Source: Escherichia coli
Lineage (GTDB): Bacteria; Pseudomonadota; Gammaproteobacteria; Enterobacterales; Enterobacteriaceae
Reading direction: 5' to 3' (one strand)
NCBI RefSeq assembly: GCF_003334355.1
Contig: NZ_QOWP01000004.1
Length of the DNA stretch: 64,000 bases
The notes under the pieces are model-generated. The model had not been told where the DNA came from. It made no database searches and saw nothing but the letters and a program-made list of their open reading frames with translations. The position numbers and the translations under genes were made by a program. Shown in pieces: positions 14,941 through 16,545 of this stretch (its first letter is position 1; the number at the start of each line of letters is the position of its first letter).

Positions 14941-15282
14941 TTAACAGAGTTTTTCAGCTCGTTCTATAAACGGTGTCAGACTCATTTTTTCGCCGGGATT
15001 GTTGGGATCATCAATCTGAATCACCGAAATGGGTTGGGCTTTAGTCTTCCCACTGGCAACTTCCTTCTGTGCGATATCGTTTAAAGGATACTGCACGAGG
15101 GTACTTGGGTTAATGACATACAAAGCATTACCCGGTCTGCAAGTCAGCATCACCTCTTCGCGATTAAACGCCCATTTGTCTTTACCCACTTCAAAACGGC
15201 TGACGGTAATCACCTGCGGTGCAGCCAGCGCCGCTGCAGAACTGGTGAGTAACAGAAACGCCAGAATACTTTTTTTCATCAT
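14941..15282 (-). CDS. yebY: YebY, DUF2511 periplasmic protein (signal peptide)
   Basis: 113-aa ORF, ATG start; N-terminal signal peptide [20 protein letters not shown]. Confidence 0.85.
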
Positions 15283-15294
15283 TTTCGTAATCCA

Positions 15295-16167
15295 TCAAAA
15301 AGGTTCGAGAGTCGCAAGCAGGCTGATGATCACCAGCACTACCGCACCTATCGCCCATTCGAGTTTAGTCATCCACACAAACCAGGGTGCCGCACGATCT
15401 TCATCCTGCCTCATGCGCGGTACAAAAACATAACGATTAGCCAGCGCAATGACCACCATAATCATCACCAGGATGGCTTTGAGCAATAAGAGTTGGCCCC
15501 AGTAAGTCGTAAGCGTGGGGGGAAATCCGGTAATCAACAATGCATTAAGCACGCCGCTTGCCAGTACGCCGATCACCGCAAAATGCCCGCACCAGGAAAA
15601 ACGCATCAGCGCCTGAATAGTCTGGTGTCGCCAACGGCCTTTGATGAGTTGCATACACCAGAGCACCGGCAGTAATCCCCCAAACCACGCCGCCGCACAA
15701 ATCAGGTGAATCGCGTGATTAGTCTGATGGATTTTCTCCGTTACCCCTTCATTCAGCGTCGCATGCCCCACTCCCGCCAGCAGAAAAAATTGCGCGGTAG
15801 TGAGCATAAACAGCAAACGTGGCATATTCCGCGGTTGCATAAGGGCGACGATCAACGTTACGAGGGCGAGAACAATTTGCCATAACCAGACGCCACCAAA
15901 CTGCGTTTGTAAAACAGCCTGCCAAATGTTTGGCGAAAATACATCTGTCCATCCCGTTCCCATCAACCCGCCCTGAACGGCGAGCATTGCAGTGGCACTG
16001 ATCAAACTCCAGACGGCAGCGTGCTGTTGTAAACGCAGAAAACGCTTCGCCAGCAAACGACGAATCGTTAAGGGGGCCAGCCAGGCACCGTACATTGCGA
16101 AGCCAAAAACCAGCATCAGCGAGGTGAAATGGATAAATCGCAGCGCGATCCAGGTAAACGCCAGCAT
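15295..16167 (-). CDS. yebZ: YebZ, CopD-family inner membrane protein
   Basis: 290-aa polytopic membrane ORF, ATG start. Confidence 0.88.
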   Translation of the reverse strand: MLAFTWIALRFIHFTSLMLVFGFAMYGAWLAPLTIRRLLAKRFLRLQQHAAVWSLISATAMLAVQGGLMGTGWTDVFSPNIWQAVLQTQFGGVWLWQIVLALVTLIVALMQPRNMPRLLFMLTTAQFFLLAGVGHATLNEGVTEKIHQTNHAIHLICAAAWFGGLLPVLWCMQLIKGRWRHQTIQALMRFSWCGHFAVIGVLASGVLNALLITGFPPTLTTYWGQLLLLKAILVMIMVVIALANRYVFVPRMRQDEDRAAPWFVWMTKLEWAIGAVVLVIISLLATLEPF

Positions 16168-16170
16168 GAT

Positions 16171-16545
16171 TTATTTCACGCTAAAGGTGTAGTGTCCTTT
16201 CGTTTTATGCCCGTCCACCGAAACAACATGCCAGTCAACGGTGTAGGTTCCGGGTTTCAGCGAATCGGCCAGTGGAACAATCAGTTGCTTTTGGTCCTGC
16301 TCATTTCGCTTCGCCGGTAATGTTTTAATATTTTCGTTTTTTGGCCCCGTGATTTTTGCACCACTGAATCCTGTTTCCACACCTTCCGAGAAGTTTAAAG
16401 TGATTGCCTGCGGTGCAGCTGTCACTTGCGCGTTTGCCGCAGGATACTGATGCGTTAAATGCGCATGTGCCCAGACGGAAGGTGTCACCAACGAAGTGGT
16501 CAGGATTGCCAGCGCGTAGCGAAGGGAGCGTGCAGTTGAAGCCAT
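16171..16545 (-). CDS. yobA: YobA, CopC-family periplasmic copper-binding protein
   Basis: 124-aa ORF with signal peptide; H-x-H and Met-rich features of CopC; 3-bp gap to yebZ. Confidence 0.88.
   Translation of the reverse strand: MASTARSLRYALAILTTSLVTPSVWAHAHLTHQYPAANAQVTAAPQAITLNFSEGVETGFSGAKITGPKNENIKTLPAKRNEQDQKQLIVPLADSLKPGTYTVDWHVVSVDGHKTKGHYTFSVK

Follow-up and report, generated by a model that had tools for sequence, protein, structure and literature searches.

The yobA-yebZ-yebY locus of Escherichia coli is the characterised AZY operon, very probably a chromosomal copper-uptake system

The CopC and CopD protein families are common to the yobA-yebZ-yebY (AZY) operon of the Escherichia coli chromosome, the CopABCD system of Pseudomonas syringae and the PcoABCDRS system of E. 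coli plasmids, and YobA is related in sequence to both PcoC (1IX2/1LYQ) and CopC (1M42). In Bacillus subtilis, YcnJ combines CopC and CopD for copper acquisition and, as in AZY, is accompanied by an extracytoplasmic accessory protein; its CopC domain (9C14) is again a sequence relative of YobA. YcnJ differs from AZY in that CopC and CopD are fused, the host is Gram-positive, the accessory protein is YcnI (DUF1775) rather than a DUF2511 protein, and the regulators of the system are YcnK and CsoR. The third AZY protein, YebY, has a described relative in MlbQ, a Microbispora lipoprotein that gives self-resistance to the lantibiotic NAI-107 and which according to the literature shares the DUF2511 family, fold and disulfide placement of YebY at 26.9% identity (PMC8689200). 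MlbQ is a lipoprotein in an ABC-transporter/lantibiotic setting, unlike the copper setting of YebY (PMC8689200). The described system that matches the present locus directly is the AZY operon of E. coli K-12 (yobA b1841, yebZ b1840, yebY b1839), one of few specific bacterial routes for copper into the cytoplasm, which has been linked to mar-dependent multidrug resistance; its significance has already been published for this exact locus.

The locus analysed here lies in a 64,000-nt stretch of E. coli DNA (contig NZ_QOWP01000004.1; hereafter the window) and is the K-12 AZY operon itself, a core chromosomal locus that is already known and characterised. It consists of three minus-strand open reading frames: yobA (16171-16545, 124 aa), encoding a periplasmic CopC-family Cu(II)-binding protein; yebZ, annotated as copD (15295-16167, 290 aa), encoding an inner-membrane CopD-family copper importer with about 8 transmembrane helices; and yebY (14941-15282, 113 aa), encoding a periplasmic DUF2511 protein. 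A first-pass annotation of the same DNA had placed the three frames at exactly these coordinates, with intergenic gaps of 3 and 12 bp, and had named them a CopC-like, a CopD-like and a secreted DUF2511 protein; both gaps are correct, and the identities agree with NCBIfam and Pfam matches as well as with the literature. As read from the sequence, the yobA stop codon TAA (16173-16171) is followed by ATC and then by the yebZ ATG at 16167, and the yebZ stop codon TGA (15297-15295) is followed by 12 nt and then by the yebY ATG at 15282. Position, gene order, spacing and flanks (pphA, ryeA/sdsR and holE) are those of K-12, and the further neighbours are yobB, exoX and ptrB. Window and K-12 operons differ only in allelic positions, and the window retains every residue implicated by experiment. 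Relative to K-12 MG1655, 23 of 2101 nt differ (98.9% identity), and at the protein level YobA is identical, YebZ 98.3% identical and YebY 98.2% identical to its K-12 counterpart. A megablast search found the region 14600-16700 in every complete E. coli genome searched (5426/5426), and several sequenced strains of the species carry the window alleles without any difference (100% identity); the RefSeq annotation of the 100%-identical genomes lists yobA, copD, yebY and holE. What the present analysis adds is small: yebZ has no Shine-Dalgarno sequence, an FnrS site lies over the yobA ribosome-binding site, and the structure of the downstream terminator is conserved with a varying stem.

We read AZY as a chromosomal copper-uptake system and not as a copper-resistance system, with a probability of roughly 0.9. 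Deletion of AZY leaves copper tolerance and oxidant sensitivity unchanged (PMC8689200), and it lowers the signal of a cytoplasmic copper (copA) reporter 3-4-fold (PMC11923076). Moreover, AZY is required for copper-dependent activation of mar, and the deletion strain keeps residual copper uptake (PMC11923076). From the DNA, the first-pass annotation had found neither the metal specificity of the module nor the role of its DUF2511 protein evident, which is fair for sequence alone; experiments have since dealt with both (PMC8689200, PMC11923076), and the metal-binding assays on YobA and the copper phenotyping of deletion mutants that it proposed are already in print.

YobA matches the NCBIfam YobA equivalog NF007636 with 264.6 bits (cutoff 129) and the Pfam CopC family PF04234 over residues 27-123 (E=1.5e-27), and the nearest solved structures in a PDB sequence search are CopC proteins. 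Its signal peptide spans residues 1-26 (16468-16545, minus strand), with cleavage between VWA and HAH in the context SVWA/HAHL; mature YobA would begin at His27, and a C-terminal D-x-H motif is present as D111-G-H113. K-12 YobA binds one Cu2+ with a KD of about 3 nM by ITC (Hadley et al. 2021, PMC8689200). The site is made of the N-terminal amine, His27, Asp111 and His113; Cu+ is not bound, and other metals are bound 100- to 1000-fold more weakly (PMC8689200). The codons of these ligands lie on the minus strand at 16467-16465 (His27), 16215-16213 (Asp111) and 16209-16207 (His113). Poor conservation of the metal-binding residues of YobA, which the first-pass annotation had named as grounds against its own reading, was looked for in an alignment of four genera (the window E. 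coli with Salmonella, Klebsiella and Proteus), in which His27, Asp111 and His113 proved invariant. In the engineered CopC protein 6NFR, the residue aligning to His113 is Phe, and in 6NFS the residues aligning to His27 and to His113 are both Phe. Since the initiator is the sole Met of YobA, which also contains no Cys, the protein is, on its sequence, without the Met-rich Cu(I) site of PcoC-type proteins.

YebZ matches NCBIfam CopD NF033808 over residues 4-290 (296.8 bits, cutoff 195) and Pfam CopD PF05425 (E=6.8e-26). A Kyte-Doolittle scan gives seven clear hydrophobic peaks at about residues 7-25, 92-110, 118-136, 153-171, 196-214, 225-243 and 269-287, and a weaker eighth segment at about 51-69, below the threshold of the scan, was judged by eye; this hydropathy profile appears consistent with the 8 helices of the literature. 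Overexpression of YebZ raises cellular copper in a specific and energy-dependent manner (Palmer et al. 2025, PMC11923076). Uptake is impaired by the substitutions H135A and H154A, increased by co-expressed YobA and decreased by YebY (PMC11923076). Both essential histidines are present in the window (His135 codon 15765-15763, His154 codon 15708-15706, minus strand) and are invariant in the four-genus alignment. Five substitutions separate window YebZ from K-12 YebZ (I93V, I128F, A144E, A183T and L248F), all of them conservative or at variable sites. A144E falls within the loop joining His135 and His154, and it looks like a neutral polymorphism because position 144 varies among genera, being E, A or G. 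No solved relative of YebZ was found in the PDB copy searched, even at E<=1, and this copy holds no structure of a CopD membrane domain.

YebY corresponds to Pfam DUF2511 (PF10709) from end to end (model positions 1-87 of 87, E=7.8e-45). Its signal peptide covers residues 1-20 (minus strand), with cleavage before APQ, and the crystallised chain of PDB entry 7N0J, 'YebY', starts at Ala21. Residues 21-113 of the window protein are the same as in 7N0J apart from 2 substitutions, both allelic; the differences from K-12 are N81K and A103T. The published protein is periplasmic and monomeric, with a Cys48-Cys113 disulfide and a 1.8 Å structure that resembles MlbQ, and it binds copper with low affinity and only in its reduced form (PMC8689200). 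The two disulfide cysteines (Cys48 at 15141-15139 and Cys113 at 14946-14944, minus strand) are invariant in the four-genus alignment. A phmmer search of the PDB with YebY as query did not recover MlbQ at E<=10, so the likeness to MlbQ is taken solely from the published structural superposition. Conservation is highest for YebY, which shares 81% identity with both its Salmonella and its Klebsiella counterpart; the corresponding values are 73% (Salmonella) and 51% (Klebsiella) for YobA, and 64% and 50%, in the same order, for YebZ.

In the mechanism that we propose, YobA is exported by its Sec signal peptide, cleavage of which makes His27 the N-terminus, and the mature protein takes up a single Cu2+ in the periplasm; the ion is held with nanomolar affinity by the N-terminal amine, the imidazole of His27, Asp111 and His113. 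The copper would then be passed directly from YobA to the eight-helix YebZ, a transfer route that is drawn from an AlphaFold model because of the missing CopD membrane-domain structure. Energy-dependent import of copper to the cytoplasm requires two periplasm-facing residues of YebZ, His135 and His154, and YebY, locked by its disulfide in an MlbQ-like fold, dampens this import and may serve as a safety valve. Imported copper would feed the cytoplasmic sensors CueR and MarR and thereby lead to mar-dependent multidrug resistance, and YobA and YebY in addition support the membrane enzyme NDH-2. All three proteins would be made from a single mRNA that begins in the yobA/holE spacer, and pairing of the small RNA FnrS over the yobA ribosome-binding site would repress the operon anaerobically.

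Two other views of what AZY does have to be weighed against copper uptake. One takes it as a Cop/Pco-type resistance module that sequesters or detoxifies periplasmic copper, a view that can point to the first description of the CopC and CopD families in the copABCD and pcoABCD resistance operons and to the NCBIfam labels, which call the matches 'copper homeostasis' proteins. However, unlike CopABCD and PcoABCDRS, AZY comes without the CopA/PcoA oxidase, CopB/PcoB, CopRS/PcoRS and the Met-rich Cu(I) site, and it has a DUF2511 partner, is chromosomal and not mobile, and shows no copper-tolerance phenotype. No multicopper oxidase, CopB/PcoB or two-component regulator is found near AZY, and because its neighbours lack these Cop/Pco partner genes, the operon should not be filed as a resistance operon. 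The absence of a Met-rich Cu(I) site from YobA and the essential absence of yebY from true plasmids speak against resistance as well, as do the wild-type tolerance of the AZY deletion strain and the failure of overexpression to rescue a copA mutant (PMC8689200). A resistance function is thus largely refuted and keeps almost none of its probability.

The other view, which we consider unlikely as an account of the main function, holds that AZY is mainly a periplasmic copper chaperone for cuproenzymes such as NDH-2, with import through YebZ being secondary or an effect of overexpression. Deletion of AZY does lower NDH-2 activity, and the effect runs via YobA and YebY and not via YebZ: NDH-2-dependent NADH oxidation is reduced in delta-yobA and delta-yebY strains but not in delta-yebZ (PMC8689200). 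Single deletions leave the cytoplasmic copper reporter unchanged (PMC11923076), and the greater conservation of YebY (81% versus 50-73% for YobA and YebZ in Salmonella and Klebsiella) would also suit a chaperone. On the other hand, overexpressed YebZ raises cellular copper specifically, the rise depends on His135 and His154 and is greater with YobA, and both copA-lux and mar activation are reduced in the strain lacking all of AZY (PMC11923076). Furthermore, CopC-CopD fusions such as YcnJ argue for joint action of the two proteins. The chaperone and import roles are not mutually exclusive, and because the NDH-2 effect does not require YebZ, the operon does more than import copper into the cytoplasm. 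Copper uptake is the reading that we prefer.

The three genes were proposed by the first-pass annotation to form one operon, and they probably do: the gaps are 3 and 12 nt, the literature designates the locus yobA-yebZY, and nothing points to separate transcription units. A reasonable Shine-Dalgarno sequence (AAAGGAA, -5.6 kcal/mol) lies 8 nt ahead of the yobA ATG. None precedes yebZ (+0.1 kcal/mol), the start codon of which follows the yobA stop codon after 3 nt, and yebY has a weak one of its own. Translation of yebZ is, on these sequence features, probably coupled to that of yobA; the lack of a Shine-Dalgarno sequence together with the close start argues for coupling and hence for co-transcription. 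It might still be supposed that yebY, or yebZ and yebY together, are expressed independently from their own promoter, given that YebY and YobA act oppositely on uptake (PMC11923076), that about half of YebY homologues sit outside AZY contexts (PMC8689200) and that yebY has its weak Shine-Dalgarno sequence. However, the gaps are too small to hold a promoter, a sigma-70 scan gives no promoter-like site inside yobA or yebZ, and the two weak terminator-like matches inside yebZ are no more than shuffled sequences give. The missing yebZ Shine-Dalgarno sequence and the order and tight spacing conserved in four genera likewise disfavour independent expression, and the literature treats the locus as yobA-yebZY (PMC3688515). 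Expression as separate units is thus very improbable, although yebZ may harbour a further promoter inside its coding sequence.

As for regulation, 'yobA-yebZY' is listed in the FNR/FnrS regulon as repressed via FnrS (PMC3688515), and FnrS-dependent anaerobic repression of AZY is also reported elsewhere (PMC8689200). The yobA ribosome-binding site and start codon (16541-16563, minus strand; -18 to +4 of the ATG) are complementary to nucleotides 37-61 of FnrS. When the single-stranded core of K-12 FnrS was paired with a 61-nt target, the duplex with yobA reached -21.8 kcal/mol, and 84 of 18270 window segments (0.46%) paired equally well or better. Complementarity at this position fits the published anaerobic repression.

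The intergenic region between the divergent yobA and holE genes (16546-16683) must contain the AZY promoter. In a sigma-70 scan, this spacer gave no promoter for yobA; the sole match of the scan in 2.7 kb falls inside the 3' end of yebY, a count below the shuffle expectation. The sequence TGACAANNTTGTCA, which we take to be the consensus of CusR/PcoR-type copper boxes, has 0 matches in the yobA/holE spacer with up to 3 mismatches allowed, and its window-wide count of 43 is not clearly above that of shuffled sequences (mean 30, largest 46). The search thus did not confirm the 'copper boxes at -34 and -22' that are mentioned in the literature (PMC8689200). A sigma-E genomic SELEX peak has been placed in the same spacer (PMC5493296).

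Downstream of yebY lies a bidirectional intrinsic terminator (14870-14911), which is composed of AAAAACCGCC, an internal stem-loop and then GGCGGTTTTTTT. Owing to its bulged stem it escaped a simple terminator scanner; folding revealed the hairpin. At 14870-14909 it reaches -20.6 kcal/mol (plus strand) and -19.8 kcal/mol (minus strand), with z=-3.4 and -3.7, and none of 200 shuffles folds as stably. An A-run borders it at one end and a T-run at the opposite end (AAAAA...TTTTTTT). The small RNA gene ryeA (sraC) occupies 14642-14913 on the plus strand, convergent with yebY, and sdsR (ryeB) lies antisense to it at 14680-14783 on the minus strand; both were located by Rfam matches (RF00101 for SraC/RyeA, plus strand, 175.1 bits; RF00111 for SdsR/RyeB, minus strand, 114.4 bits), with their extents transferred from K-12. 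The annotated K-12 3' end of ryeA (1923337) corresponds to window position 14913, at the end of the T-run of the hairpin. According to an in-vitro study, RyeA is about 270 nt long and its 3' end is formed by Rho-independent termination (PMC6610125). A terminator shared by the operon and ryeA had been claimed in the first-pass annotation: the hairpin is real and RyeA ends there, and for the minus strand we infer from the sequence that the AZY transcript probably ends at the same hairpin. The design of A-run, hairpin and U-run recurs 3' of yebY in both Salmonella and Klebsiella, although the stems differ in sequence; a structure that is kept as its stem sequence varies is, at the sequence level, the expected look of a conserved terminator. 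In Proteus, no convincing hairpin was found after yebY.

It may also be asked whether the conserved linkage of AZY to SdsR/RyeA is functional, tying copper import to small-RNA control of efflux, a reading that we regard as improbable. Under such a scheme, copper brought in by AZY would derepress mar and raise AcrAB-TolC, while the adjacent SdsR would repress tolC; repression of tolC by SdsR is itself published (PMC6610125). Transcription running on past yebY would have the same sense as SdsR and be antisense to RyeA, and convergent RyeA transcription could interfere with the 3' end of AZY.

Outside E. coli, copC, copD and the DUF2511 gene occur in the same order in Salmonella enterica, Klebsiella pneumoniae and Proteus mirabilis, with gaps between genes of -1 (a 1-nt overlap) to 46 nt. 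In a tblastn search of 72,556 plasmid records, yebY was found in 11, all of them 0.26-5.4 Mb in size, and the 3 of these 11 that were inspected have chromosomal core genes around yebY; the gene is thus essentially absent from genuine plasmids. AZY and SdsR/RyeA lie next to each other in Proteus too, despite its different outer flanks, and in Enterobacteriaceae they probably share a bidirectional terminator; this synteny was already published in 2012.

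Within the minus-strand copper operon, the gene for the CopD-family transporter YebZ (window 15295-16167) has no Shine-Dalgarno sequence, with an anti-Shine-Dalgarno duplex of +0.1 kcal/mol (window 16165-16173), and its ATG lies 3 nt past the stop codon of yobA, which encodes the CopC-family copper binder (window 16171-16545). Together, these two features suggest that yebZ would be translationally coupled to yobA, so that the YobA:YebZ expression ratio may be fixed. The encoded YebZ differs from that of K-12 by A144E (codon at window 15736-15738), which places a carboxylate in the loop separating the essential His135 and His154. 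Since the alignment has E, A or G at this position in different genera, the substitution is probably neutral. In the comparison with loci from Salmonella (L004), Klebsiella (L005) and Proteus (L006), the accessory protein YebY (window 14941-15282) is better conserved than either the copper binder or the transporter: its identity to the Salmonella and Klebsiella proteins is 81%, compared with 73% and 51%, respectively, for YobA and 64% and 50% for YebZ.

The sole σ70-like promoter match in window 14400-17100 lies at 14930-14957 on the minus strand (CTGAAA-16-TAAAAT), where it shares bases with the yebY stop codon and is directed into the terminator. Because 3.2 such sites are expected in this interval and one was found, the match is most likely due to chance.

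Directly downstream of yebY is the SdsR/RyeA sRNA pair, at window 14642-14913 in E. coli, 3457-3601 in L004, 3400-3544 in L005 and 3391-3565 in L006. The outer flanking genes vary among these four genera while the position of the pair next to yebY is kept, a synteny already reported (Frohlich 2012). No functional tie between SdsR/RyeA and the copper operon was found described in the literature examined. In Salmonella serovar India, a hypothetical gene, an XRE-family regulator and a tyrosine recombinase lie just past sdsR/ryeA (L004 3845-6336), a position occupied in E. coli by pphA. On this 3' side, the sRNA locus has the look of a site of integration.

A search of E. coli genomes with window 14600-16700 gave 5660 matching places in 5426 genomes, with no genome giving more than two and a single place located on a plasmid; thus, some genomes would have part of this region a second time, as a partial or duplicated copy. 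The PLSDB "plasmid" records with yebY, among them CP125156.1, NZ_OL790811.1 and NZ_CP022016.1, measure 0.26-5.4 Mb, and chromosomal core genes, holE, exoX, ptrB and pphA among them, are present in all three of those inspected. These records probably represent chromosomes, or pieces of chromosomes, that were mislabelled.

Elsewhere in the window, other Rfam matches above their gathering scores are to the sRNA MicL (50211-50518, minus strand, 370 bits), naRNA4/CssrE (35847-35922, minus strand) and ES036/CssrF (46233-46275, plus strand).
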